Shown here: positions 2,323-61,427 of the stretch, in pieces | Position numbering within the stretch: the first letter of the stretch is position 1 | Layout of the letters: the number at the start of each line of letters is the position of its first letter | From: Bacteroidota bacterium | Lineage (GTDB): Bacteria; Bacteroidota; Bacteroidia; CAILMK01 | Length of the DNA stretch: 64,000 nt | Direction of reading: 5' to 3' | Assembly (NCBI GenBank): GCA_036846145.1 | Contig: DAIUCM010000001.1 | Coordinates: forward strand, 7,350 to 71,349 | Notes under the pieces: model-generated | Databases searched by the model: none | Told to the model about the DNA's origin: nothing | What the model saw: the letters and a program-made list of their open reading frames with translations, nothing else | Program-made: the position numbers and the translations under genes

Positions 2323-3621
2323 ATGCGAGCCACCTTTACCATAGAAAACACATCCGTTTTTAAACGCAAACTACTCACTTTTTTGCAGCGCGAGCCGATT
2401 TATGCTTTATACAATTCCAACGATTTTTACAAGGATAAAGATTTGTCTTCGCGGCCATATTATCATTCCCACGATCTGCTTTGTGCTTTCGGTGTAAAAC
2501 GTGAAATTATAGCCGATAATGAAGCATTTTTCGACAAACTGATATATGCGCGCAAAACGCAAAGCTGGCTTTTCGGCTTTTTGGGTTACGATTTGAAAAA
2601 CGAAGTAGAAGACTTACAATCAAACAATTACGATGGCACCGAAATGCCGGATGCGTATTTTTTTGAGCCCGAAACGGTGTTGCTGTTGAATGAAAATCAA
2701 TTAACCATCTCAACTCAAAGCATTTTTTCACCAATTGATATATGGAAATCTATTTCTGAAGCTGATGAACTTGAAATTCAAGCCAATAAAAACCCTATAA
2801 AGCTCAAAAACCGCTTAAGCAAAGCAGAATATATTTCTAATGTAGAAAAGCTAAAAAATCATATTGTAGAAGGCGATATTTATGAAGTGAATTTTTGCCA
2901 GGAGTTTTATGCTGAAGATGCCGAAATTCATCCTGAACAATTATTTGCGCGAATCAACCAGCTTTCACCTCAGCCTTTTTCTGGCTTATTGAAATTGCAA
3001 GATAAATATGTGATCTGCGCCAGCATGGAGCGTTTCCTGAAAAAAGAAGGCAACAAACTCATTTCCCAACCTATTAAAGGAACCATCCGCCGCGGAAAAA
3101 CACCTGAAGAAGATTTAGAACTTCAAAAACAACTTGCCGAAGATGAAAAAGAGCGAGCTGAAAATATTATGATCGTGGATCTGGTTCGTAATGATCTCGC
3201 GCGTAGTTCACAATCCGGTTCTGTAAAAGTGGAAGAGCTTTGCGGTGTTTATGATTTCCCTTTGGTTCACCAGATGATCTCGACCGTTACATCTACTCTT
3301 CGCCCGGAAATTCCATATATAAATGCTATTAAAAATGCTTTTCCCATGGGTTCCATGACCGGCGCACCCAAAGTTCGAACCATGCAACTTATCGAGGAAT
3401 ATGAAAAAACTAAACGTGGCTTGTATTCCGGCGCTATCGGCTATTTCGCTCCAGATGATGATTTTGATTTTAATGTTGTGATTCGCTCTTTCATATATAA
3501 TCAAGCCAAAAAATACTTAAGCCTGCATGTTGGTTCTGCCATAACTTTTGATTCGGATGCGGAAAGGGAGTTTGAGGAATGCCAGATGAAGATTAGAGGG
3601 TTATTGCGGGCGTTGGAGTAA
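2323..3621 (+). CDS. pabB: chorismate-binding enzyme, aminodeoxychorismate/anthranilate synthase component I family
   Basis: 432-aa ORF with the chorismate-utilising C-terminal signature ...AFPMGSMTGAPKVRTMQLIEEYE...RGLYSGAIGYF... Confidence 0.75.
   Translation: MRATFTIENTSVFKRKLLTFLQREPIYALYNSNDFYKDKDLSSRPYYHSHDLLCAFGVKREIIADNEAFFDKLIYARKTQSWLFGFLGYDLKNEVEDLQSNNYDGTEMPDAYFFEPETVLLLNENQLTISTQSIFSPIDIWKSISEADELEIQANKNPIKLKNRLSKAEYISNVEKLKNHIVEGDIYEVNFCQEFYAEDAEIHPEQLFARINQLSPQPFSGLLKLQDKYVICASMERFLKKEGNKLISQPIKGTIRRGKTPEEDLELQKQLAEDEKERAENIMIVDLVRNDLARSSQSGSVKVEELCGVYDFPLVHQMISTVTSTLRPEIPYINAIKNAFPMGSMTGAPKVRTMQLIEEYEKTKRGLYSGAIGYFAPDDDFDFNVVIRSFIYNQAKKYLSLHVGSAITFDSDAEREFEECQMKIRGLLRALE
3491..3621 (+). 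repeat. direct repeat copy 1 (intact 3' end of pabB) matching 7651-7781
   Basis: Manual alignment of 3491-3621 against 7651-7781 gives 111/131 identities with no indels. Weaker similarity continues ~20 nt past the stop with an indel. Confidence 0.8.
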
Positions 3622-3708
3622 ATCGTATCTCAAAAATAATTTTTACAGCGTCATGGTTTGGCGTTGTGGTCGAATATTTTTGAAAGAAATTTTCGAAACT
3701 GATTTCCT

Positions 3709-3736
3709 CATATATGTTAGACCTAAAAAATGCTTT
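3709..3736 (+). repeat. bipartite motif copy CATATATG-N13-ATGCTTT, 32 nt upstream of the GmrSD-like gene
   Basis: ctCATATATGttagacctaaaaaATGCTTTaa. Confidence 0.7.
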
Positions 3737-3767
3737 AAATTGTGAAAAATAAATTATCAAAAACTAA

Positions 3768-5537
3768 ATGGAAACCCAATCAAACAACACATTCTCAATT
3801 AAGGCAAAAACTTGCACTTTAAAACTTAAAAGCCAAGAAGATGGCGACACAATTTTAGGCAAAAATGTCAAGTACGTTATTCCAATTTACCAACGACCTT
3901 ATTCATGGAAAGAAGAACAAATCAGGAAGTTCATCTCAGATATATTTAATTCTTTCTGGGGAACTGATGGCGATTCGGAATCTGAAGCTATGTTTATCGG
4001 AACAATGCAGTTGTCTGACGCGAAAGAGATTATTGATGGACAGCAAAGACTTACAACCTTTCTATTGCTTTTAAAAGTTTTAAAACAGAATTATCCAGAT
4101 TGCAGCCAATTAAAAGATATAACTTTAGATTGGTTGAATACCAAAGTGAACAGCGGAGAACAACAACTATATTTAAATGAAGTAATTTCAAGTAATTTAA
4201 CTTTAAATGATGAAACACTGAATCCGTATTTAAAAAATGCTTATTTAATTAATGAGCTGATTGAGGAAGAAATTAAAGACGAAGAAGGAAATTACTTAAA
4301 CTTTGATATTGATAAGTTTTCTAATCATTTACTGAGCAACATCTATTTCGTTGTAATTGAAACACGTGCCGGATTATCAAAAACGCTGCAAATCTTCAAT
4401 GCAATAAATACAACAGGTCTAGATTTAAACGGCGGAGATATTTTTAAAATAAGAATGTACGAATACCTGAAAGATAAAAAAGGTAAAGATGAAACGGCTT
4501 TTGAAGATATTAGCAGGCTTTATCAAAAAATTGACCAACTGAATGCGGAACTAAAAGATAATGTAACGGACATGCACGGCATTCTAAATATTTACCAGTA
4601 CATTTTGATAGCAAAATTTAATTTGCCTACTGTACTTTATAACTATGCTACTGATGTTTTCTTTGAACACTTATTTGATAGCATATTCAACATAAACCAG
4701 TGGAATCATTTCAGCAATGTGAAAAATGTTGAGCTTTCAATTAATGAAATAGACAGAATAATAGATGCCAGATTTGATTGGGAACGAAAATGGTATGCAA
4801 AAGCTGAAGACATGGGATGCTATAAATTAATGGCGACATCTCGATACGGCAAATATTGCGATGTTTTACCAACAATATTACTTTTTGCTGATAAAAATGC
4901 CGATAGATTCTATTTCACACGACAGTTAAGTAAAGTTTATGCAATTTACAGTATTCGCTTCTTAAAAGCTGTAAATGAAATTCATCGGTTTACATACTCT
5001 CTCATTAAAGATATTCTTAACAAGCCTTTTGAGGAAATAATGCGAACTATAAACCAAAAGATCGGTAAACCTGAAGATCATAATCAAGGATGGTACGATT
5101 TAAATTGGTTTTTGTCTGAGAACCTAACAGAAAATGATAAAAGAAAGAAACTGATTTGTCGCCTATCTGCATTACTAGAGGAAAACTATCAAACTGAAGA
5201 TCAGAAAGAAATTGAGAACCTAAAAGATAAACTTTTTCATAACGACATAGATATCGAACATATCCAATCTTATCACGACAGAGATGGCAACAAAAGAGAA
5301 GATGTTTGGAATGAATGGAAAGAGGCAATAAATTCAATTGGAAACTTAATGGTTTTAGAATCAAGATTAAATCGTTCAATCAGTAATAAACCATATAATG
5401 AAAAACTGGTAAGATACCCGGAAAGCGCATATAAAATTGCACGTAAACAGACAGAATTAGCGGAATGGAATCTGAAAAAATGTCTTGAACGCAAAGAAAA
5501 AGAAACAATGAAAATTGTAGTATATCTTTTCAGTTAA
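3768..5537 (+). CDS. GmrSD-family single-chain nuclease (N-terminal DUF262/ParB-like NTPase with DGQQR motif; C-terminal DUF1524 His-Me finger), putative type IV modification-dependent restriction/defence enzyme
   Basis: 589-aa ORF. N-terminal ...IPIYQRPYSWKEEQIRKFISDI...IIDGQQRLTTFLLLLKVL... matches DUF262. C-terminal ...DIDIEHIQSYHDRDGN...WNEWKEAINSIGNLMVLESRLNRSISNKPY... matches DUF1524/HNH-like. The gene is markedly more AT-rich than flanking housekeeping genes. Confidence 0.8.
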   Translation: METQSNNTFSIKAKTCTLKLKSQEDGDTILGKNVKYVIPIYQRPYSWKEEQIRKFISDIFNSFWGTDGDSESEAMFIGTMQLSDAKEIIDGQQRLTTFLLLLKVLKQNYPDCSQLKDITLDWLNTKVNSGEQQLYLNEVISSNLTLNDETLNPYLKNAYLINELIEEEIKDEEGNYLNFDIDKFSNHLLSNIYFVVIETRAGLSKTLQIFNAINTTGLDLNGGDIFKIRMYEYLKDKKGKDETAFEDISRLYQKIDQLNAELKDNVTDMHGILNIYQYILIAKFNLPTVLYNYATDVFFEHLFDSIFNINQWNHFSNVKNVELSINEIDRIIDARFDWERKWYAKAEDMGCYKLMATSRYGKYCDVLPTILLFADKNADRFYFTRQLSKVYAIYSIRFLKAVNEIHRFTYSLIKDILNKPFEEIMRTINQKIGKPEDHNQGWYDLNWFLSENLTENDKRKKLICRLSALLEENYQTEDQKEIENLKDKLFHNDIDIEHIQSYHDRDGNKREDVWNEWKEAINSIGNLMVLESRLNRSISNKPYNEKLVRYPESAYKIARKQTELAEWNLKKCLERKEKETMKIVVYLFS

Positions 5538-5558
5538 TCAACCATACATTTCACCAAC

Positions 5559-6974
5559 TTGTCTAAACGAGGCTACATATCCCGCTATTTGCTGATTCTG
5601 AAAAAGCTAAAAGCAAAAAAGTATTGTTCTTTCGAGGAGCTGCAAAGCTATATTACCGACCAGTTGCATTACCTGCAAATGCATGACGATTCACTGCACA
5701 TTGGTTTTTCACCGAGAACTTTACAGCGGGATATTGGTGAAATCAGCAAAACTTTCGGGATTTATATTGAATATTGTCGGAAGGCAAAAGGCTATTTCAT
5801 CAGTTCTACGCAGGCAGAAAACATGAATTTCATGCGGATGGTAGAAGCTTTCGATATGTTCAACACTTTAAAAACGGTAGAAGACCTTTCACCATATGTT
5901 CATTTCGAGAAGCGGAAACCGCAAGGCACTGAACATTTTGCACCGGCGCTGGAAGCCATTCAGAAACAAAAAGTTATAAACTTCCAGTATTTTAAATTCG
6001 AGGAAGAAGAAGCGCGGGAAAGAACAGTGAAGCCATTGCTGCTGAAAGAATTCAAAAGCCGCTGGTATATTGTGGCGCAGGAAATGGGCGTTAATAAGAT
6101 AAAAACTTTCGGGCTTGACAGAATTTCCGAGCTTGTATTAACGCAGGAATCTTTTGAAAAACCACAGGATTTTAACGCGGAAGCATTTTTTGCCAATTGT
6201 TTCGGCATCATTAATCAGCCCAATGCGTACCCTGAAAATATCATTCTCTCATTCACAAAACTCCAGGGACAATACATTAAAACTTTTCCGCTACACGAAA
6301 CCCAGCAAATTTTAACGGACAATGAATTCCAAATCAAGATAAAGCTGCGCTTACATATTACGCACGATTTACTGATGGAATTACTTTCTTTCGGAGAAAA
6401 TGTGGAAGTTATATCACCTTTCAGCCTGCAGCAAGAATTGTACAATATCCACCAGAAATGCCTGCGCAAATACGATGTTTTCAGTGATGCCAATATTCAA
6501 AAATCTAAAGCTGAAAATATTTTAAAAACACTAAACAGGTTATTTTACAGCACTTTACAAATCAGCGATTACGGCAGCGAGCGATTCAGATTAAATGCCA
6601 ACCGATTCCGCGAATTGATCAACGCAGCGCAAAACTACAATATGGTTTTCAAGGAAGCGCCGCTTGAAAATGTAATGGTTGATCTGAAAAATCTACCGCA
6701 AGCAGCAATAAAACTTCTAACGCAAATCAACGAAATAAAAGCAAATCGACTGGAAGCTGCGGAAACTAACGATTTTGAATTAGCTGCCAAATTGCGCGAC
6801 CGGGAAAAACCGCTGATGCAGAAGTTATTCACCGATTATTATAGCCAAGGCTTTAAATATTTCAATGCTTCGGCTTATAAACCCAATATTATCCGGTTTT
6901 CATATACCGGCCATCCATTAGATTATTTATTGTACAAAGCCATCCAACGGCAGCCGCAATTGCAGGATTTCTAA
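5559..6974 (+). CDS. wHTH-WYL-WCX transcriptional regulator (BrxR/CapW-like) with ~160-aa C-terminal extension containing a UVR (UvrB/UvrC-type) motif
   Basis: 471-aa ORF 21 nt downstream of the nuclease gene. N-terminal wHTH: ...YCSFEELQSYITDQ...SPRTLQRDIGEI... WYL core: ...YQYFKFEEEEARERTVKPLLLKEFKSRWYIVAQEMGVNKIKTFGLDRISEL... WCX-like segment: ...LLMELLSFGENVEVISPF... C-terminal UVR motif: ...NDFELAAKLRDREKPLMQK... Confidence 0.7.
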   Translation: MSKRGYISRYLLILKKLKAKKYCSFEELQSYITDQLHYLQMHDDSLHIGFSPRTLQRDIGEISKTFGIYIEYCRKAKGYFISSTQAENMNFMRMVEAFDMFNTLKTVEDLSPYVHFEKRKPQGTEHFAPALEAIQKQKVINFQYFKFEEEEARERTVKPLLLKEFKSRWYIVAQEMGVNKIKTFGLDRISELVLTQESFEKPQDFNAEAFFANCFGIINQPNAYPENIILSFTKLQGQYIKTFPLHETQQILTDNEFQIKIKLRLHITHDLLMELLSFGENVEVISPFSLQQELYNIHQKCLRKYDVFSDANIQKSKAENILKTLNRLFYSTLQISDYGSERFRLNANRFRELINAAQNYNMVFKEAPLENVMVDLKNLPQAAIKLLTQINEIKANRLEAAETNDFELAAKLRDREKPLMQKLFTDYYSQGFKYFNASAYKPNIIRFSYTGHPLDYLLYKAIQRQPQLQDF

Positions 6975-6998
6975 AACAAAGGTCACAACAGCTCTTCG

Positions 6999-7027
6999 CC
7001 ATATATGCCATTGATAAGAAATGCTTT
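6999..7027 (+). repeat. bipartite motif copy between WYL regulator and yefM
   Basis: cCATATATGccattgataagaaATGCTTTaa. Confidence 0.7.
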
Positions 7028-7089
7028 AAACGTTACACGAACCTTTCTGTACAATATTTCGTACATTTGAAAGTACAAGTTTGTAAATT

Positions 7090-7344
7090 ATGAAAGCAGT
7101 TACGATTTCATCGCTCAGGAATAAAATGAAAGAATACTTTGACGCAGTTAGCAAATCGCAGGAAGTAATTGTAGTTCCGAGAAATAGCAATGACGATGAT
7201 GCGGTTGTAATTATTTCAATAAAAGAATATAACTCGCTAATTGAAACGGAACATCTGCTTTCGACAAAATCAAACAGGCAAAGGCTGCAGGAATCTATAA
7301 ATCAAGCAAAAAGCGGCGAAACAGTTCCTTTTAATTTAGATTAA
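7090..7344 (+). CDS. yefM: type II antitoxin, Phd/YefM family
   Basis: 84-aa [73 protein letters not shown]... The fold and length are typical of YefM. It sits 9 nt upstream of a yoeB-like frame. Confidence 0.85.
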
Positions 7345-7353
7345 CGTATCGCC

Positions 7354-7631
7354 ATGAATATAGAATTCACTGCGCATGCATGGGAAGAGTTTATTTATTG
7401 GCTGGAAACAGATATAGAAATTGCGAATAAGATTAAAGAACTGCTGAGATCCATACGCCAAAGTCATTCCAGGGAATCGGGAAACCAGAACCATTAAAAT
7501 ATTATTTGAAAGGTTATTGGTCGAGAAGAATAACTGCAGAACACCGATTGGTTTATACTGTGATTGGCAAGAAAAGTGAAAATCAAAAGTGTCTCATCAT
7601 CCAATGCAAATACCATTATGACGATAAATAA
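7354..7631 (+). pseudogene. yoeB: YoeB-family toxin, frameshifted (single-base deletion near 7463)
   Basis: Frame A from ATG 7354 gives MNIEFTAHAWEEFIYWLETDIEIANKIKELLRSIRQS then runs out of frame to a stop at 7499-7501. The -1/+2 frame continues (S)FQGIGKPEPLKYYLKGYWSRRITAEHRLVYTVIGKKSENQKCLIIQCKYHYDDK to a stop at 7629-7631. Restoring one C in agtcattcc to agtccattcc yields a contiguous YoeB-like protein. Confidence 0.75.
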
Positions 7632-7650
7632 AAAAGCATATATTACTTCA

Positions 7651-7781
7651 TCATATATAATCAGCACAAAAAATACTTAAGCCTGAATGTTATTTCTGCC
7701 ATTACTTTTGATGCGAATGCAGAAAAGGAGTTTGAGGAATGCCAGGTGTAGATTAGAGGGCTATTGAGAACACTGGAATAA
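7651..7781 (+). repeat. direct repeat copy 2 (degenerate, non-coding remnant of pabB 3' end)
   Basis: 85% identical to 3491-3621 at a constant offset of 4160 nt. The pabB reading frame is interrupted here by stops (..aat act taa gcc tga..). Confidence 0.8.
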
Positions 7782-7819
7782 TAAATTTTGACGTCAATCG
7801 TTAAAGTTAAAACTACAGC

Positions 7820-8212
7820 ATGAATTTAAATCTATCAGAGTCTATAAAATCTCACCCATATTATAAATTTCTAGTAAAACTACTTTTTATAATTCAACTA
7901 ATTACCGGATTAGTATTACTAATAGCTGATTTGGTTTGGAGTTATTTTATAATAAAAGGTTTAAATTATTTAGGGCATTTACCGGAATATGGTGATACTG
8001 AAATAATTTCATTTGATGGTCTTGATAGAATAATACTTATTTACTCAACAGTCTTTATGGTTTGGGGGCTTATAATTTGGAGTATTGGTTTCACACTAAA
8101 CATTATTTTTAAATTATATCGCATTAATAAATTGATTTACGTTGGATTAATTGCTTTTGCTTTTAATCTGATCATTTTATTTAGTCCGTCTTTTGCGTGG
8201 GCTTTAGATTAA
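7820..8212 (+). CDS. hypothetical small integral membrane protein (3-4 predicted TM helices)
   Basis: 130-aa ORF with strongly hydrophobic segments (LLFIIQLITGLVLLIADLVW; VFMVWGLIIWSIGFTLNIIF; YVGLIAFAFNLIILF). AT-rich. No recognisable family. Confidence 0.45.
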   Translation: MNLNLSESIKSHPYYKFLVKLLFIIQLITGLVLLIADLVWSYFIIKGLNYLGHLPEYGDTEIISFDGLDRIILIYSTVFMVWGLIIWSIGFTLNIIFKLYRINKLIYVGLIAFAFNLIILFSPSFAWALD

Positions 8213-8275
8213 AACAAAAAGCACATACAACTTTCGCCATATGTGCCTTTGCTAAAAAATGCTTTATAGAGAAAT

Positions 8276-8560
8276 CTACTCTTCTACGATAAAAACTTCC
8301 TCGTTATCTTTCTTCATGAAATAACGCTCGCGGGCAAATTTTTCCAGGTTTTCTTCGTTGCTGAAAAGCTCATCGCGGCTTTTGGAAACTTCCTGGATTT
8401 TTTGCTCATAATACGCGCGTTCATCTTGCATTTTGTGCAGATCAACGGTATCTTTTATCCGGCGAATCACATTATACCTGTCGAAAAACCCGATCCACAC
8501 CACCATAATAGCAGTGAAGATCACATATTTGTTTTTTATCCAGTACAACACTTTTGCCAT
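8276..8560 (-). CDS. septum formation initiator family protein (FtsB/DivIC-like)
   Basis: 94-aa ORF with an N-terminal TM helix (VIFTAIMVVWIGFF) followed by a coiled-coil segment. Lies immediately downstream of eno, the usual eno-ftsB arrangement. Confidence 0.65.
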   Translation of the reverse strand: MAKVLYWIKNKYVIFTAIMVVWIGFFDRYNVIRRIKDTVDLHKMQDERAYYEQKIQEVSKSRDELFSNEENLEKFARERYFMKKDNEEVFIVEE

Positions 8561-8572
8561 ATCTCAAATATA

Positions 8573-9901
<1,329 letters not shown>

Positions 9902-9996
9902 TTATTAATGATTGAATGACTGAGGGATTGAATGATTGAATATTTAAGTCTTTATTTTCAATTCTCATATATCATTCGTTCGAAAAATGCTTTGAT

Positions 9997-33009: not shown

Positions 33010-33047
33010 AATTAATTTATGAATTTGGAAATATTATAATGAAGCTG

Positions 33048-33075
33048 CATATATGGTTTTGCTGAAAAATGCTTT
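33048..33075 (+). repeat. bipartite motif copy 39 nt upstream of rpoC
   Basis: gCATATATGgttttgctgaaaaATGCTTTtg. Confidence 0.7.
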
Positions 33076-33162: not shown

Positions 33163-33173
33163 TAAACCAATTC

Positions 33174-33201
33174 CATATATGCAACCTCAAAAAAATGCTT
33201 T
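33174..33201 (+). repeat. bipartite motif copy overlapping the rpoB stop codon
   Basis: cCATATATGcaacctcaaaaaaATGCTTTag. The rpoB stop (complement) is at 33200-33202. Confidence 0.7.
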
Positions 33202-42448: not shown

Positions 42449-43336
42449 TTAACCCTTGGGATGGGCTTGTTTGTAAATAGTTTTTAATCTTTCTATTGAG
42501 TTGTGGGTATAAATTTGCGTGGCGGCAAGGTTAGCATGGCCGAGCAATTCTTTAATAGCATTAATTTCCGCGCCATTGTTCAGCAGGTGCGTAGCGTATG
42601 TATGGCGCAAAACATGCGGACTGTTTTTTTGAATGCTGCTTACCATGCTTATGTATTTTTTTACTGCACGGTTCACAAACATGGGGTAAAGCGGCTGACC
42701 TTTATCGGTTACCAGTAATGTTGTACTGGTAAATCCATAAAGCATTTTTTGCTGCAGGTATATATGAATTGCCTCGGCAGTTTGCGCGGGAACAGGTATA
42801 ATGCGCTCTTTATTACGCTTTCCTGTAACTTTAATACATGATTCGGCCAGATTTATATTTTTCTCTTGCAATGATATTAGCTCGCTCAAACGCATCCCCG
42901 TACCATATAGCAGCTCGAGGATAAGCTTATCCCGTTGACCATAAAAATCGTCGGGGAATTCTATATATTCATTATCGAATAAATGGTTTGTTTCTGTTTC
43001 TGTAAGCCATTGAAAAAGCCTTTTCTCTGTTTTAACACTTTGTATTGCAGCCATTGGGTTTATTGCTACAGCTCCGCTCCTGAGCAGGAACTTATAAAAA
43101 GTATTAAGCGCAACCAGTTTACGGTTAATGCTGCGGGCGCTGAGCTTTTGCTGGGTTTGCTCGTAGATCCACGATTTTACCATAGCAGGTTTTACAACCG
43201 ATTCATCCGCTACGGAGTACTGAACTTGCAGAAATGCAAAAAACTGCGCTACGTCATTAACATAGGCAGTTCCTGTATGCTTCGAATATCTTCTCTCGTT
43301 TTGTAGGTAATCTGCAAATTGCGCAAGCTTACTCAT
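42449..43336 (-). CDS. tyrosine-type site-specific recombinase, XerC/XerD family
   Basis: 295 aa with catalytic ...RHTYATHLLNNGAEINAIKELLGHANLAATQIYTH... Sits between rpsU and hpf, a conserved chromosomal arrangement in Bacteroidota, so it is more likely a chromosome-dimer-resolution Xer than a mobile-element integrase. Confidence 0.8.
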   Translation of the reverse strand: MSKLAQFADYLQNERRYSKHTGTAYVNDVAQFFAFLQVQYSVADESVVKPAMVKSWIYEQTQQKLSARSINRKLVALNTFYKFLLRSGAVAINPMAAIQSVKTEKRLFQWLTETETNHLFDNEYIEFPDDFYGQRDKLILELLYGTGMRLSELISLQEKNINLAESCIKVTGKRNKERIIPVPAQTAEAIHIYLQQKMLYGFTSTTLLVTDKGQPLYPMFVNRAVKKYISMVSSIQKNSPHVLRHTYATHLLNNGAEINAIKELLGHANLAATQIYTHNSIERLKTIYKQAHPKG

Positions 43337-45069: not shown

Positions 45070-45543
45070 ATGTGTTTTTTGCGTAAAAACCTGGTTGTAT
45101 ATTTTGCAGCTATTACGCTGCTTATTATGCTATCGTGCGCTTTTACGGCCGACAGGCGGTTAAGATTCAGGAAATACAGCTGGATAGATATTGGAAGATC
45201 TGCCAGGTCTCAAAACAAGATGATTTTTGTACTGGTAACCGGCAAATACTGCCCAACCAGCAAAAAAATGAATCGTGTGGTATCTGAACCAAAAGTGTGT
45301 GAGTTCTACAACAATAATTTTGTAAGCACAACTTTTGATGCGCAAAACCCAACACAATATTACAGAGCCAGCAATTGGGGCGTTTCCAGTATCCCAGCCT
45401 TGGTTTTTTTAACTAAAAACAGGGAAGTAGTTTATATTTCTCAAGGTTACCAGGATGCTAACGGTATGATTAGCGAAGCTAAAACAGCCCTGGAAATGAA
45501 TAATCCAGCCAAGGCAAAGCAGAAATCCAATGGCGCTGAATAG
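45070..45543 (+). CDS. secreted thioredoxin-fold protein, paralog 1 (CPTS variant of CXXC)
   Basis: 157 aa. Signal peptide, then ...KMIFVLVTGKYCPTSKKMNRVV...FYNNNFVSTTFDAQNPTQYYRASNWGVSSIPALVFL... This pattern is alignable position-by-position with ORFs at 46468 and 47126. Confidence 0.7.
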   Translation: MCFLRKNLVVYFAAITLLIMLSCAFTADRRLRFRKYSWIDIGRSARSQNKMIFVLVTGKYCPTSKKMNRVVSEPKVCEFYNNNFVSTTFDAQNPTQYYRASNWGVSSIPALVFLTKNREVVYISQGYQDANGMISEAKTALEMNNPAKAKQKSNGAE

Positions 45544-45867
45544 CAATGTATATTCCTGTATTATTTAAGCCGGCCTTTTAATAAATTTCCTAATTGCCAT
45601 TCTGGTATTTACCAATACCCATATAGAATTGCTGTAAAATGCTTCGCTGTAAGCTTAAATGCTGCTCATTCTTTTTTATGAAATCTATAAAACTATAATT
45701 ATGGCAGCTTTCTTGGAGAAACTATTAGTTTGCCAAAGCATTTTTAGTGGATTATATATATGATGCCTTATTAAAATGAATCTCAAGATTTTAAACAAAG
45801 ACTTCGCCAGATTAACTTTTGGCCTTTACTGGTTATTGTAATTTTACTTCCGCTTGGATTATCCAAG

Positions 45868-46110
45868 TTGAAGTATGGATCTGATGAATTTCTTAAGCGT
45901 ATGCCAGATGGTCATTCTAATGTTGGGATTGTAATATCGGCGTGCTCTATAATAGAAGTAATTCTGATAGTTATAACATTTATTGCTTATTTGTTAAAAG
46001 AACAAATCGTCCACAATCAACTTATTCATTTTATAGCGCTATTGCTTTTGTTTATAATCGGAGTTGTTCCAGGTTTGTTAGTACTTTGGACAGTGTGGTT
46101 CAGGATTTAA
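45868..46110 (+). CDS. hypothetical small membrane protein (doubtful)
   Basis: 80-aa ORF with two hydrophobic stretches in an otherwise gene-free 0.9-kb AT-rich spacer. No family recognised. Confidence 0.25.
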   Translation: MKYGSDEFLKRMPDGHSNVGIVISACSIIEVILIVITFIAYLLKEQIVHNQLIHFIALLLLFIIGVVPGLLVLWTVWFRI

Positions 46111-46467
46111 TCAGCTTTCACGCTAGTAAAGCATTTTTTCAGGCTTGTATATATGGATTTCATAAATTAGTCGCCTTTACTGGCTTTGCAATTTGCCCAT
46201 TTGTGCCGCTCATTCAGGGTTTTGCAATATATTCCGCAAATGCTTAAGCTTACTATAATCGTCAATTATTCGTAATAATCCTATTGGTGCATTTAACTTT
46301 TAGCGACAGGAATATTCTCCGGTTAAATCAGTATTTGGATTTTTTTTCACCCTTCCCCAACCAATAATAATATTATCACATCATTGCTTTTGTAAAGTGA
46401 AAATTGCAATATCACAAACTAACCATTTAACTATTAATTAATTACAATACCTAAATTTAATATTATT

Positions 46468-46884
46468 ATGTCAAAGATATTTTTTGCACTATTATTAAGC
46501 ACAGCATTTTTGTTCCAGTCTTTTACAAGCGATAAGAAAATAAAATTCAGAGAAAACGGATGGAGCGAGATTGGCAAAGCCGCCAAAACGGAAGATAAAA
46601 TGATATTTGTACTCGTAACCGGCGATTACTGCTCCGCCAGCAGAAAGATGAAGCGAGTGCTGCAGGATGGTAAAGTGGGTGAGTTTTACAATAAGAACTT
46701 TGTCAGTACAAATTTCGACGCTGAAAACTTTATACAGCACTACCGCGCAAGCAACTGGGGTGTTACCAGTGTACCAGCTATGGTTTTCCTGGATAAGAAC
46801 CGTAAAGTGATTCATAAAAAAGAGGGCTTTTTAAATGCAGAAGGCATGCTGAAAGAAGCGCAGGAAGCCATGGCAAAACAATAA
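46468..46884 (+). CDS. secreted thioredoxin-fold protein, paralog 2 (CSAS variant of CXXC)
   Basis: 138 aa, ...KMIFVLVTGDYCSASRKMKRVL...FYNKNFVSTNFDAENFIQHYRASNWGVTSVPAMVFLD... Confidence 0.7.
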   Translation: MSKIFFALLLSTAFLFQSFTSDKKIKFRENGWSEIGKAAKTEDKMIFVLVTGDYCSASRKMKRVLQDGKVGEFYNKNFVSTNFDAENFIQHYRASNWGVTSVPAMVFLDKNRKVIHKKEGFLNAEGMLKEAQEAMAKQ

Positions 46885-47125
46885 CCTTCCAATTACAGTA
46901 TTACAGAAACCTTACCTGACAGAAAAGCCAACAAATGTACCGATCTAAACAAAAAGCATCCACAAAAAATCTCATAGACAACATATTATATGCACCGGGC
47001 TTTGTTTTTATATGTTAAAAACTAAACTTTGCAGCAAAATATTACATGCGTAAGCACCTACCCAAAATTGCGCATCAGTTAAGGTAATTATCCGTATCTT
47101 TATATTACATTAAATAACCTCTATT

Positions 47126-47683
47126 ATGGTTTTGGGTAAGTGGCCTTTAAGGCTTGTATTAATTGGATTGGCATTTACGTTACAGGCGTATACCGTTGGA
47201 AATGAGAAACAACAGAAAATAAAATTCAACGAGCTGGCCTGGCGTTACATTTGCAAAGAGGCTACCGCAAAAGAAAAACTTATTTTTATTTACGTTGGCG
47301 CGGATTATTGCAGCGCCTGCCGGCGGATGGAAACCAGTTTGCGCAGCCCTAAACTTGGCGGTTTTTACAACAATGCGTTTGTAAATGTACGTTTTGATGC
47401 AAAAGATTTCATTCAGCACCAGCGGGCAACAAGCTGGGGCGTTACAAGCGTGCCAACCATGGTTTATTTAAATGAAAAGAGAGAGGTAGTACACATGGTT
47501 ACAGGCTTTCGTGATGCGGAAGGCATGATGCGTGAAGCCCAGATAGCGATGGAAAAAAGCGGCAAATCCATTCATATACCTATAGAAATTGCTGATGAAG
47601 TTGAGGAAATTGAAACCGGCAACCCTTGTGATGAAGACAAAACTGAAATGAAACCTGTAGAAACGCCCGAAGAAACCAAATAG
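47126..47683 (+). CDS. secreted thioredoxin-fold protein, paralog 3 (intact CSAC motif) with acidic C-terminal tail
   Basis: 185 aa, ...KLIFIYVGADYCSACRRMETSL...FYNNAFVNVRFDAKDFIQHQRATSWGVTSVPTMVYLN... plus ...IEIADEVEEIETGNPCDEDKTEMKPVETPEETK. Confidence 0.7.
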   Translation: MVLGKWPLRLVLIGLAFTLQAYTVGNEKQQKIKFNELAWRYICKEATAKEKLIFIYVGADYCSACRRMETSLRSPKLGGFYNNAFVNVRFDAKDFIQHQRATSWGVTSVPTMVYLNEKREVVHMVTGFRDAEGMMREAQIAMEKSGKSIHIPIEIADEVEEIETGNPCDEDKTEMKPVETPEETK

Positions 47684-47685
47684 CG

Positions 47686-47755
47686 CATATATATTATAGC
47701 CTTAAAATGCTTTGTGTATTAAAACGCAAAGCATTTTTTGGTTAAGGCATATATG
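47686..47755. repeat. two motif copies in inverted orientation (47686-47713 forward, 47728-47755 reverse)
   Basis: gCATATATAttatagccttaaaATGCTTTgtgtattaaaacgcAAAGCATtttttggttaaggCATATATGt. Confidence 0.75.
47704..47739 (+). terminator. intrinsic terminator after thioredoxin-fold paralog 3, built from two inverted copies of the ATGCTTT half-motif
   Basis: AAAATGCTTTGTGT-attaaa-ACGCAAAGCATTTT then TTGG. The 14-bp stem has one G.U, and the T-run is partly within and partly after the stem. Confidence 0.6.
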
Positions 47756-47941
47756 TAAATTCAATATCATTTTGTTAAGGATTTTCTTGTCAAATTTCTG
47801 TAATAATTTCGGTGCGGATTGCGTGAAGATTTGATTCGTGTCTATTAGCAAATACTAAAAGTTGGCGTTAGTGGACTGACACATTTCATAAGCCCCAAGG
47901 CATTACTCTAATAACAAATTACAAAACCTTTCGAAAAGAAA

Positions 47942-50004: not shown

Positions 50005-50202
50005 GTTATAGTGAGGTTTGTTTGTATATGCGGATTAATTATTGCGAAAATAAACTTTTTCCATATTTTAATATCATAAAATTACATCTTTAGTAATAAT
50101 AATCCTGGTTGCCTATATATTGGGTTTCTGAAAAATGCTTTGGCCACTGCATTAATGGTTTGTATATCGAAAATTAAACACGTGCAAATCTGTTATAAAG
50201 AC

Positions 50203-54778: not shown

Positions 54779-54783
54779 TTTTG

Positions 54784-54811
54784 CATATATACGTTGGCGG
54801 AAAAATGCTTT
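54784..54811 (+). repeat. bipartite motif copy 6 nt from the MmcQ/YjbR start codon (opposite strand)
   Basis: gCATATATAcgttggcggaaaaATGCTTTag. Confidence 0.7.
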
Positions 54812-60663: not shown

Positions 60664-61383
60664 ATGAGACTGAAAGAGAGCTGGCTTACGGATGGAATTA
60701 TAGATTTTGAATATAAAAAATACTTGTTGCTTGGTTATTTACAATCGGTAGAAAAAGATTTTACCAGCAACAAATTGTACCCAAGTTTAGGTGAGCTCAT
60801 TGCGCATTACCAGAATTTACAAACATTTATACAATGCAAGGAAGCAACAGAAAAAGCATTTCCGAAAGACCTGAAACAAATAGATCTGCAGAATTTCTTT
60901 TTGCGCTACCAGAAGGTTGTAGAAGACGATGAAGTAATGGCAGAAATTGAAAAGATACTCAACTTCAGCGTACCAAAAATAAAGCAAAGCCTGGAAGAAG
61001 GCCGCGAAATTTACGACTGGATTGAAGAACGTTTGAGTTTATGGCCTTTGGGTATTGTGCCATTACAGCAACAGGCAGGTTATCTTTTCATCCGCAATGG
61101 CGAGAAAGATAAAGAAACCAAAGTTTACGAATATCAATTAAGTTTTCTGCAGCAGGCCAATGATACTTATCGCGCCATACAAACACAATTTGTGAGTACA
61201 TATAGCACATCAATCATAAATACTTATGAAAGTATAAAATCTCAGGTTATAAAAACACAAAAGCTGCTTATTGCGCCTGCGGTTTATGTAGTTGAAAGTG
61301 AGCTGCAACTGCCTTTAACAGAAACCCTGTTACCTATCGCAAGACGAGCTTTGGTAAGGCATTTGACTACGAATGGGTTCTAA
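60664..61383 (+). CDS. hypothetical protein
   Basis: 239-aa ORF with good coding texture and no recognisable domain. Ends at a bidirectional terminator shared with secG. Confidence 0.5.
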   Translation: MRLKESWLTDGIIDFEYKKYLLLGYLQSVEKDFTSNKLYPSLGELIAHYQNLQTFIQCKEATEKAFPKDLKQIDLQNFFLRYQKVVEDDEVMAEIEKILNFSVPKIKQSLEEGREIYDWIEERLSLWPLGIVPLQQQAGYLFIRNGEKDKETKVYEYQLSFLQQANDTYRAIQTQFVSTYSTSIINTYESIKSQVIKTQKLLIAPAVYVVESELQLPLTETLLPIARRALVRHLTTNGF

Positions 61384-61427
61384 AGCATTTTTCGGCATTG
61401 CCATATATGCACAAAATAAATAAATAT

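Follow-up and report, generated by a model that had tools for sequence, protein, structure and literature searches.

How do small defence hotspots located between core genes acquire or exchange their cargo when they carry no mobile-element genes? Defence hotspots that lie between core genes and show no mobile-element scars have been described, and the way in which their cargo is gained or swapped has been stated to be an open question (PMC10250203). It is raised by a locus in a 64-kb stretch of DNA from a Bacteroidota bacterium (contig DAIUCM010000001.1; hereafter the window), where five genes and a displaced copy of the 3' end of pabB lie between the convergent genes pabB and ftsB. We found that, in an uncultured genus of Bacteroidia, this junction is a hotspot with hypervariable cargo, and that the window contains two complete units in tandem, each composed of a pabB end, cargo and a terminator. 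The explanation that we favour, with a probability of roughly 55%, is that hotspot alleles were stacked through a homology-anchored displacement insertion of a chromosomal allele.

The pabB gene (2323..3621, plus strand) is intact and encodes an aminodeoxychorismate synthase component I-like protein of 432 aa (Chorismate_bind, 1.2e-83; Anth_synt_I_N), which shares 88% amino acid identity with PabB of the relatives L081 and L175 (L-numbers designate contigs or loci of relatives). Its functional 3' end, made up of the last 43 codons and the stop codon (C1, 3491..3621, plus strand), shows 91-92% identity with the corresponding ends in five relatives. The displaced end, a pseudogene fragment, together with the TAAA that follows its stop codon occupies 7651..7785 on the plus strand (C2). 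Aligned without gaps, C1 and positions 7651-7781 were identical at 111 of 131 nt (85%), with a spacing of 4160 nt. This repeat, without indel, had been reported in the initial annotation of the window, and it was confirmed by a repeat search and by our own count. The second-best ungapped placement of C1 in the whole 64-kb window matched at 57 of 131 positions, the background having a mean of 33.6 and a standard deviation of 5.0, and the C1/C2 match stands at z ~15 over this background. The weaker similarity said to extend about 20 nt past the stop codon was not significant in a shuffle test. That the second copy is no longer coding was borne out, one internal stop (AAG to TAG) being found in the pabB frame, with the terminal TAA kept. 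The mismatches between C1 and C2 number 11, 3 and 6 at codon positions 1, 2 and 3, respectively; as they fall mostly at positions 1 and 2, they do not have the look of purifying selection and point to a fragment freed from it. The 10 private substitutions of C2 and its stop are consistent with the decay of a displaced end.

Relatives of the locus were recovered by exact-protein look-ups and by a pabB protein search, and they represent six related lineages (L081/L181, L082, L084, L086, L175/L176 and L177/L178) with flanks that are 84-91% identical at the nucleotide level. Hardly any close relative was present in the GTDB representative set or in the JGI metagenomes: the best GTDB pabB match was about 51% identical, and a pabB scan yielded one close metagenome match, the 1.4-kb fragment L086 (90%). 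Searching for exact matches to ribosomal protein S11, IF-1 and Phd gave no further alleles. In all relatives whose sequence covers the junction, homology with the window stopped at 3621, i.e. at the pabB stop codon plus up to 4 nt, and resumed at 8208-8211, past an open reading frame (ORF) for a predicted membrane protein (7820..8212, plus strand), and not at 7782. The empty site that had been predicted, in which the pabB stop would be followed directly by the sequence from 7782 onward, was therefore seen in no relative, and the membrane ORF, previously taken for part of the flank, is itself variable cargo, since homology resumes only beyond it; it was absent from the loci of L081, L084, L175 and L177. 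All relatives have the same, sharply defined right boundary. It reads TAAAACAAAAAGCAC and marks the start of the intrinsic terminator of ftsB (T, 8210..8268; hairpin at 8250-8217, minus strand), from which point the sequence is nearly identical in L081, L082, L084, L175 and L177. The conserved right flank consists of ftsB/DivIC (8276..8560, minus strand; 94 aa, DivIC domain), the protein of which is identical across L081-L084, followed by eno (8573-9865; Enolase domain). The variable block of the window is 3622-8209, membrane ORF included.

Each of the seven lineages, the window being one of them, had a content of its own between the pabB stop and T; the site is polymorphic among relatives, in support of the earlier interpretation. 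Five genes are present in the window, a 343-aa membrane-like ORF in L081/L181, a 161-aa ORF in L084, small ORFs in L086, a GmrSD-WYL pair in L175, a 568-aa repeat protein secreted by the type IX secretion system together with a 144-aa ORF in L177/L178, and something else in L082, the contig of which stops short of pabB, so that the presence of a repeat cannot be judged there. Only the window and L175 have cargo in common, and the cargo of L081 and L084 carried no defence annotation. Cargo has a GC content of 26-34%, as compared with 39% for the window mean. An empty junction was found in two distant Sphingobacteriales metagenome-assembled genomes (MAGs; L001 and L016), which retain the pabB/ftsB/eno synteny with the pabB and ftsB stop codons about 15 nt apart; it is confined to relatives whose pabB is about 50% identical, and the close relatives hold other cargo. 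Conserved flanks, differing contents and sharp common boundaries thus define a small hypervariable hotspot. Like the core defence hotspots of P. aeruginosa (PMC10250203), it has conserved core flanks (pabB on one side and ftsB-eno on the other) and different cargo in each lineage, AT-rich in the present case, and it has no mobile-element genes. Unlike them, it is tiny (0.2-4.6 kb, one to five genes), and only the cargo of the window and L175 is recognizable as defence, that of the other lineages being orphan, membrane or secreted proteins. Furthermore, such hotspots are usually without a scar, whereas here C2 and a decayed terminator copy, T', record the addition of cargo.

Unit 1 of the window (3491-7030) extends from C1 to T' and is collinear from end to end with the single-cargo chromosomal allele of L175 (NCBI GCA_004295775.1). 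In L175 the order is pabB, a 65-nt spacer, GmrSD, a 471-aa WYL/UVR gene, T, ftsB and eno, without toxin-antitoxin genes, pabB remnant or membrane ORF. In the window, the spacer between the pabB stop and GmrSD (3622..3767, plus strand) is homologous to that of L175 at 3633-3690, the local alignment score being reached by 0 of 300 shuffles; it also contains, at 3704-3737, a copy of a 34-nt motif that occurs genome-wide. The GmrSD-family gene (3768..5537, plus strand; 589 aa) encodes a protein that aligns over its full length with its L175 counterpart (52% aa identity), and the WYL regulator gene (5559..6974, plus strand; TTG start) one that has the same length as in L175, 471 aa, and is 80% identical. 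From 5309 to 7030, the window and L175 (3477-5199) form one continuous alignment with 78.6% nucleotide identity, and this alignment includes T' (6972..7030, plus strand), a decayed copy of the ftsB terminator and boundary that has no ftsB behind it. T' aligns with T of all relatives and has L175-specific states (CAGCT, one extra base and TTTAAA), whereas the working T of the window matches instead T of the closest relatives. We considered the possibility that T' was a mere copy of the genome-wide motif CATATATG-N10-AAAAATGCTTT and rejected it, because T and T' are the top-scoring pair among 17 motif copies (score of 26, as compared with a mean of 1.6 and a standard deviation of 6.4), because their similarity starts at the stop codon, outside the motif, and because T' lies inside the L175 alignment. 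The stranded integrative element that had been proposed for this block does not fit with the collinearity of the segment from the pabB end to T' with an ordinary chromosomal allele. Nor was the same islet found elsewhere next to pabB; relatives of GmrSD-WYL at other places lie in unrelated contexts.

Unit 2 (7651-8268) consists of the older pabB end, followed by the membrane ORF and by T, the working terminator of ftsB. C2 is closed by the clade-typical TAATAAA, and about 35 nt further on lies a single cargo ORF that ends exactly at T, so that this unit has the anatomy of a normal single-cargo allele. No allele holding unit 2 alone was found; the sole detectable homologue of the membrane ORF among 5.8 billion proteins is an 83-aa fragment with 53% identity (L174), on an ENA contig of 533 nt that provides no useful context. 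The two units are joined by a 620-nt linker (linker B, 7031..7650, plus strand) with phd/yefM, a putative operator and a frameshifted yoeB. Both ends of the linker are novel junctions (T'|phd and yoeB|C2), and both were found in an independent Logan assembly of run SRR3961739 (L083 and L085, 100% identity; L083 is 100% identical over 6545-9742). The linker had no homology to any relative's locus, and a plasmid search with the phd-yoeB segment returned generic YoeB similarity only. GmrSD, the WYL gene and phd/yoeB thus lie between an intact and a decaying pabB end, which upholds the earlier view that the insertion brought a replacement gene end.

The same arrangement occurs in a second lineage. 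In L177 and L178, two separate MAGs with a PabB that is 80% identical to that of the window at the amino acid level, the order is pabB, the 568-aa ORF, a displaced pabB end, the 144-aa ORF, T and ftsB. Both cargo genes are unrelated to the cargo of the window, and no recombinase was found in the L177 cargo. The remnant aligns with the last 130 nt of the lineage's own pabB, as compared with 131 nt in the window, and the left boundary of the displaced end is therefore equal in the two cases to within about 1 nt; this remnant also ends with TAATAAA. The L177 remnant has 20 private changes and a 4-nt deletion, that of the window 10 private changes, and as these numbers are of the same order as the divergence between the lineages, the duplication event or events are old. 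The two remnants have one exclusive derived state in common, no more than random pairs of functional ends, and the data are compatible with one event as well as with two. The spacer behind C1 and that of L177 looked suggestively similar by eye, without reaching significance in a shuffle test. A downstream pabB duplicate was present in none of the other 160+ pabB loci fetched. Apart from the repeat, pabB of L177/L178 (L177 2691-4121, 476 aa) has an internal insertion of about 44 aa at the position of window 3294-3325.

According to the displacement mechanism that we favour, the incoming DNA would have been another genome's copy of the same locus, namely an L175-like allele fused to a phd-yoeB module. 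It would have paired by homology with the resident pabB and been joined to it 131 nt upstream of the resident stop codon, either by Campbell-type integration of a circular intermediate in a single crossover or by homology-facilitated illegitimate recombination. The pabB gene would have stayed intact with a new end, the old end and the old cargo would have been pushed downstream, and the old end would then have decayed, no element-encoded integrase taking part. Decay is seen in C2, T' and yoeB, and a domain scan of the ORFs of 3622-8209 found no recombinase, integrase, excisionase or transposase, in line with the initial annotation, which had noted that none of the last three lay between the repeats. 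The final structure would result equally well from an alternative order, in which the resident allele was of the L175 type and its T was the site of crossover with a circle that carried the linker, C2, the membrane ORF and T. The crossover on the pabB side is slightly preferred because L175-type states are found at both ends of T' and because L177 has a duplicated pabB end without a duplication of T.

The closest described process is the displacement of the 3' ends of effector, Rhs or CdiA genes. For type VI secretion system (T6SS), Rhs and contact-dependent inhibition (CDI) loci, it has been proposed that incoming modules displace the 3' ends of genes by recombination that is homology-anchored and partly illegitimate (PMC5361080). 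As in these 'orphan' arrays, the gene has a new 3' end and the old end is kept with its downstream partner, the order in both the window and L177/L178 being C1, cargo, C2, old cargo. Unlike them, pabB encodes a housekeeping biosynthetic enzyme and its new end specifies essentially the same peptide, without functional diversification; there is one layer only, with a displaced end of 131 nt; and there is neither a polymorphic toxin domain nor a cognate immunity gene, the near-identical pabB C-termini being followed by unrelated orphans.

If this reading is correct, the pabB-ftsB locus keeps a readable scar of one cargo-gain event, in which the cargo came as another lineage's copy of the same locus, together with the end of the neighbouring gene and a terminator, and the incoming allele was stacked on the resident one instead of replacing it. 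The composite locus is then plausibly an intermediate in allele exchange, as recombination between C1 and C2 would give an allele with the membrane ORF only, and recombination between T' and T exactly the L175 allele.

Several points weigh against this reading. Profiles of sliding pabB identity to five relatives gave no sign of a crossover breakpoint, and there was no convincing microhomology at 7030/7031 or 7650/7651. The model leaves the origin of the phd-yoeB linker and its two junctions unexplained, and the final structure is compatible with two orders of events: unit 1 may have entered a resident unit 2 via C, or unit 2 with the linker may have entered a resident unit 1 via T. The defence activity and the regulation attributed to the cargo are predicted from protein domains. 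Most importantly, L177/L178 has the same left boundary with unrelated cargo, a coincidence expected in about 1-5% of cases if joining were random and illegitimate in a gene of 1.3 kb. This shared boundary in two lineages is poorly accounted for by displacement insertion and keeps alive two alternatives, an ancient duplication and site-specific insertion; it also makes the involvement of a specific site or enzyme testable.

The first alternative, which we consider rather unlikely, is that one ancient duplication created the order pabB, slot 1, displaced end, slot 2, T, and that cargo was afterwards turned over in the two slots by ordinary homologous recombination anchored in pabB, the remnant and T/ftsB, the remnant being lost elsewhere by recombination between repeats or by replacement of the whole locus. 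It would explain the identical left boundary in the window and L177/L178 without site specificity, as well as the TAATAAA at the end of both remnants; the private changes (10 and 20), which match lineage divergence in order, indicate one or more old events, and the products of T'xT and C1xC2 recombination would be the L175 allele and a single unit-2 allele. Yet the single exclusive derived state common to the remnants is what random functional pairs have, many independent losses would be needed (in four or five of the seven lineages), and both slots would have been replaced in both lineages. T' would, moreover, still require the import of an L175-type single allele into slot 1.

It is also possible, though unlikely, that the locus arose from a site-specific integrative cassette, for which the pabB 3' end at about -131 would serve as attachment site and the direct repeats would be attL and attR. 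Integrase-less cassettes, with an attP containing the last 131 nt of pabB, would be acted upon in trans by the recombinase of a helper element or by a host Xer-type enzyme, the candidate target being the TTTCATATATAATC region of pabB. In both the window and L177/L178 the repeat starts at the same nucleotide (to about 1 nt) and ends just past the stop codon, the cargo that it bounds being unrelated, and a repeat running from a fixed start to the gene end is what a fixed crossover core would produce; that the remnants have only one exclusive substitution in common argues against a joint pseudogene history. A tyrosine recombinase is available in the window, the Xer-like ORF at 42449-43336, which is the only one, as had been noted. 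However, neither cargo (window or L177) includes an integrase or excisionase, unit 1 holds a chromosomal T' and is collinear with L175, which is not expected of a dedicated element, and four of the five other related lineages (L081/L181, L084, L086 and L175/L176) swapped cargo without any repeat. The downstream duplicate is also missing from the 160+ other pabB loci, the islet was not found elsewhere, and the copies, which are 85% identical, differ throughout with no obvious identical core.

Integrase-mediated islands at the 3' ends of tRNA, tmRNA or protein genes, on which the original idea of a site-specific element was modelled, do resemble the locus in having direct repeats of the target 3' end and leaving the gene intact, and the repeat boundary is identical in two lineages. 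They differ from it in that pabB has no integrase, excisionase or identical core next to it, that the insert has a copy of a chromosomal terminator and matches a relative's chromosomal allele, and that the same element was not found at the same site in other genomes. The one result in favour of that idea is the common left boundary (130 nt in L177/L178, with unrelated cargo); the insert does not have the look of a self-contained element. A wider version, in which the last ~131 nt of pabB would be a dedicated landing site for small integrase-less cassettes bringing a replacement pabB end, appears doubtful. If true, it would imply that either RecA, working on the repeats, or a recombinase supplied in trans carries out insertion and excision, and it would imply defence and accessory genes that are stacked and shuffled like integron cassettes within the 3' end of a housekeeping gene.

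Finally, chance similarity or a metagenome mis-assembly joining the alleles of two strains is hardly credible: the contig is metagenome-derived and, at so variable a locus, a mixture of strains that differ in their hotspot allele is plausible, but the repeat has z ~15, its copies differ by 15% and so would not be collapsed or mis-joined in assembly, and mis-assembly was rejected because the junctions T'|phd and yoeB|C2 lie in unique sequence and were reproduced in the Logan assembly and because L177 and L178, separate MAG assemblies, show the same architecture.

There is nothing unusual in the gene content of the insert, i.e. GmrSD, a WYL regulator and a decayed toxin-antitoxin pair, and domain matches agree with the genes first listed for GmrSD, WYL and phd, though not for yoeB, which is frameshifted. 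The AT-richness ascribed to the whole block holds for GmrSD (31.8% GC) and phd (35%) and not for the WYL gene, which at 39.4% equals the window mean of 39%; the lowest value at the locus is that of the orphan membrane ORF of unit 2 (130 aa, 26.5% GC), which lies outside the repeats and had no Pfam or PADLOC match.

The GmrSD-family protein is a type IV restriction enzyme (DUF262/DUF1524) by its domains. It has an N-terminal DUF262 (ParB-like NTPase) domain (GmrSD_N, 3.9e-29, residues 30-227), in which IIDGQQRLTT aligns with the DGQQR motif of SspE, and a C-terminal DUF1524 His-Me/HNH-like nuclease domain (GmrSD_C, 2.6e-15, residues 451-577), in which DIEH...GNLMVL...N aligns with the IEH...GNL...N motif of SspE; it matched the Orf5, HEC-06 and SspE models of PADLOC. 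The BrxR-like regulator encoded 21 nt downstream contains WYL (2.5e-14, residues 125-192), WCX (7.9e-07, residues 226-300) and UVR (1.4e-05) motifs, and WYL proteins of the PDB match its residues 133-292. Its N-terminus had no Pfam helix-turn-helix match at E<0.01, and the PADLOC WYL model PDLC01457 spans residues 8-288. By analogy with characterized systems, in which DNA modified with hmC or glucosyl-hmC, for example, is cut, GmrSD probably cleaves modified phage DNA and the WYL protein would repress or induce the operon. BrxR-family regulators are commonly found with type IV restriction enzymes (PMC9122601), and the pair resembles the BrxR/CapW-type WYL proteins and GmrSD enzymes such as BrxU (PMC9122601, PMC8565348) in having a DUF262 and DUF1524 nuclease next to a WYL-WCX protein. 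It differs from them in that the regulator gene is downstream of the nuclease gene, that the regulator continues into a C-terminal tail, about 160 aa long, which contains a UVR motif, and that no BREX genes are present.

The nearest GmrSD outside the genus is 64% identical and lies in other contexts. Homologues with 62-64% identity in other Bacteroidota are directly followed by a WYL-WCX gene; GmrSD-then-WYL is therefore a conserved gene pair, with the regulator downstream in the homologous modules too and not at the head of the operon. The nearest modules (L168 649-4595; L171 6042-10720; L173) have a conserved gene for a 381-382-aa AAA ATPase upstream, accompanied in L171 by a gene for an RNase_T-like exonuclease, also upstream. 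Together these genes may make up a larger defence module, and only two of them would then be left in the window. The C-terminal extension of the regulator (residues ~310-471, with a UvrB/UvrC motif) is kept in L175 and is missing from the WYL proteins, 305-307 aa long, that are paired with the nearest GmrSD homologues; the extension may serve as an additional module for sensing or for interaction with other proteins. The comparison of GmrSD (3768-5537) with that of L175 (1862-3706) is mosaic: the N-terminal two-thirds are about 65% identical at the nucleotide level or unalignable, whereas the last 230 nt and the WYL gene (L175 3725-5140) are 78.6% identical and the core flanks 84-91%. This pattern points to domain swapping, or to diversifying selection, in the part responsible for recognition.

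In the linker, an intact phd/yefM antitoxin gene (7090-7344, plus strand; PhdYeFM_antitox, 5.1e-18) lies directly upstream of yoeB, ending at 7344 with yoeB starting at 7354. It is preceded by a GTAC-rich putative operator at 7050-7080; GTAC repeats are typical of yefM operators such as that of E. coli yefM-yoeB. The yoeB gene (7354-7631, plus strand) has lost 1 nt near 7465 and is a pseudogene: its first frame stops after 47 codons, the remaining domain is in the +2 frame, and the YoeB_toxin match (1.6e-32) was reached only after joining both frames, which gave a protein that aligns over its full length with plasmid YoeB toxins. The Logan assembly of the same run has the identical frameshift (47-aa call). 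Judging from the reading frames, the Phd antitoxin presumably persists and the YoeB toxin has been inactivated. An intact phd beside a broken yoeB amounts to an orphan antitoxin adjoining a defence operon.

Scans for Rfam families and tRNAs gave no match near the locus. The motif met in the spacer and at T recurs through the window as yCATATATG-N9/10-AAAAATGCTTT, of about 30 nt (34 nt in the form with CATATATG), and its 11-mer AAAAATGCTTT occurs 16 times in the window, as compared with 0.44 expected. Copies are found at 3704-3737, 6995-7028, 8233-8266, 9864-9897, 9963-9993, 33046-33075, 33172-33201, 45735-45764, 46128-46157, 47728-47757, 50112-50141, 54782-54811 and 61382-61411, among others. 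They are mostly intergenic and often lie beside terminators or a short way upstream of the starts of minus-strand genes (eno, rpoB/rpoC-like ORFs). The motif has no resemblance to the Bacteroidetes -33/-7 promoter consensus and no Rfam match. At 45070-47683, three tandem thioredoxin-like ORFs (Thioredoxin_2/7) adjoin the region of the Xer-like recombinase and a tRNA cluster, and copies of the AAAAATGCTTT motif lie between them.

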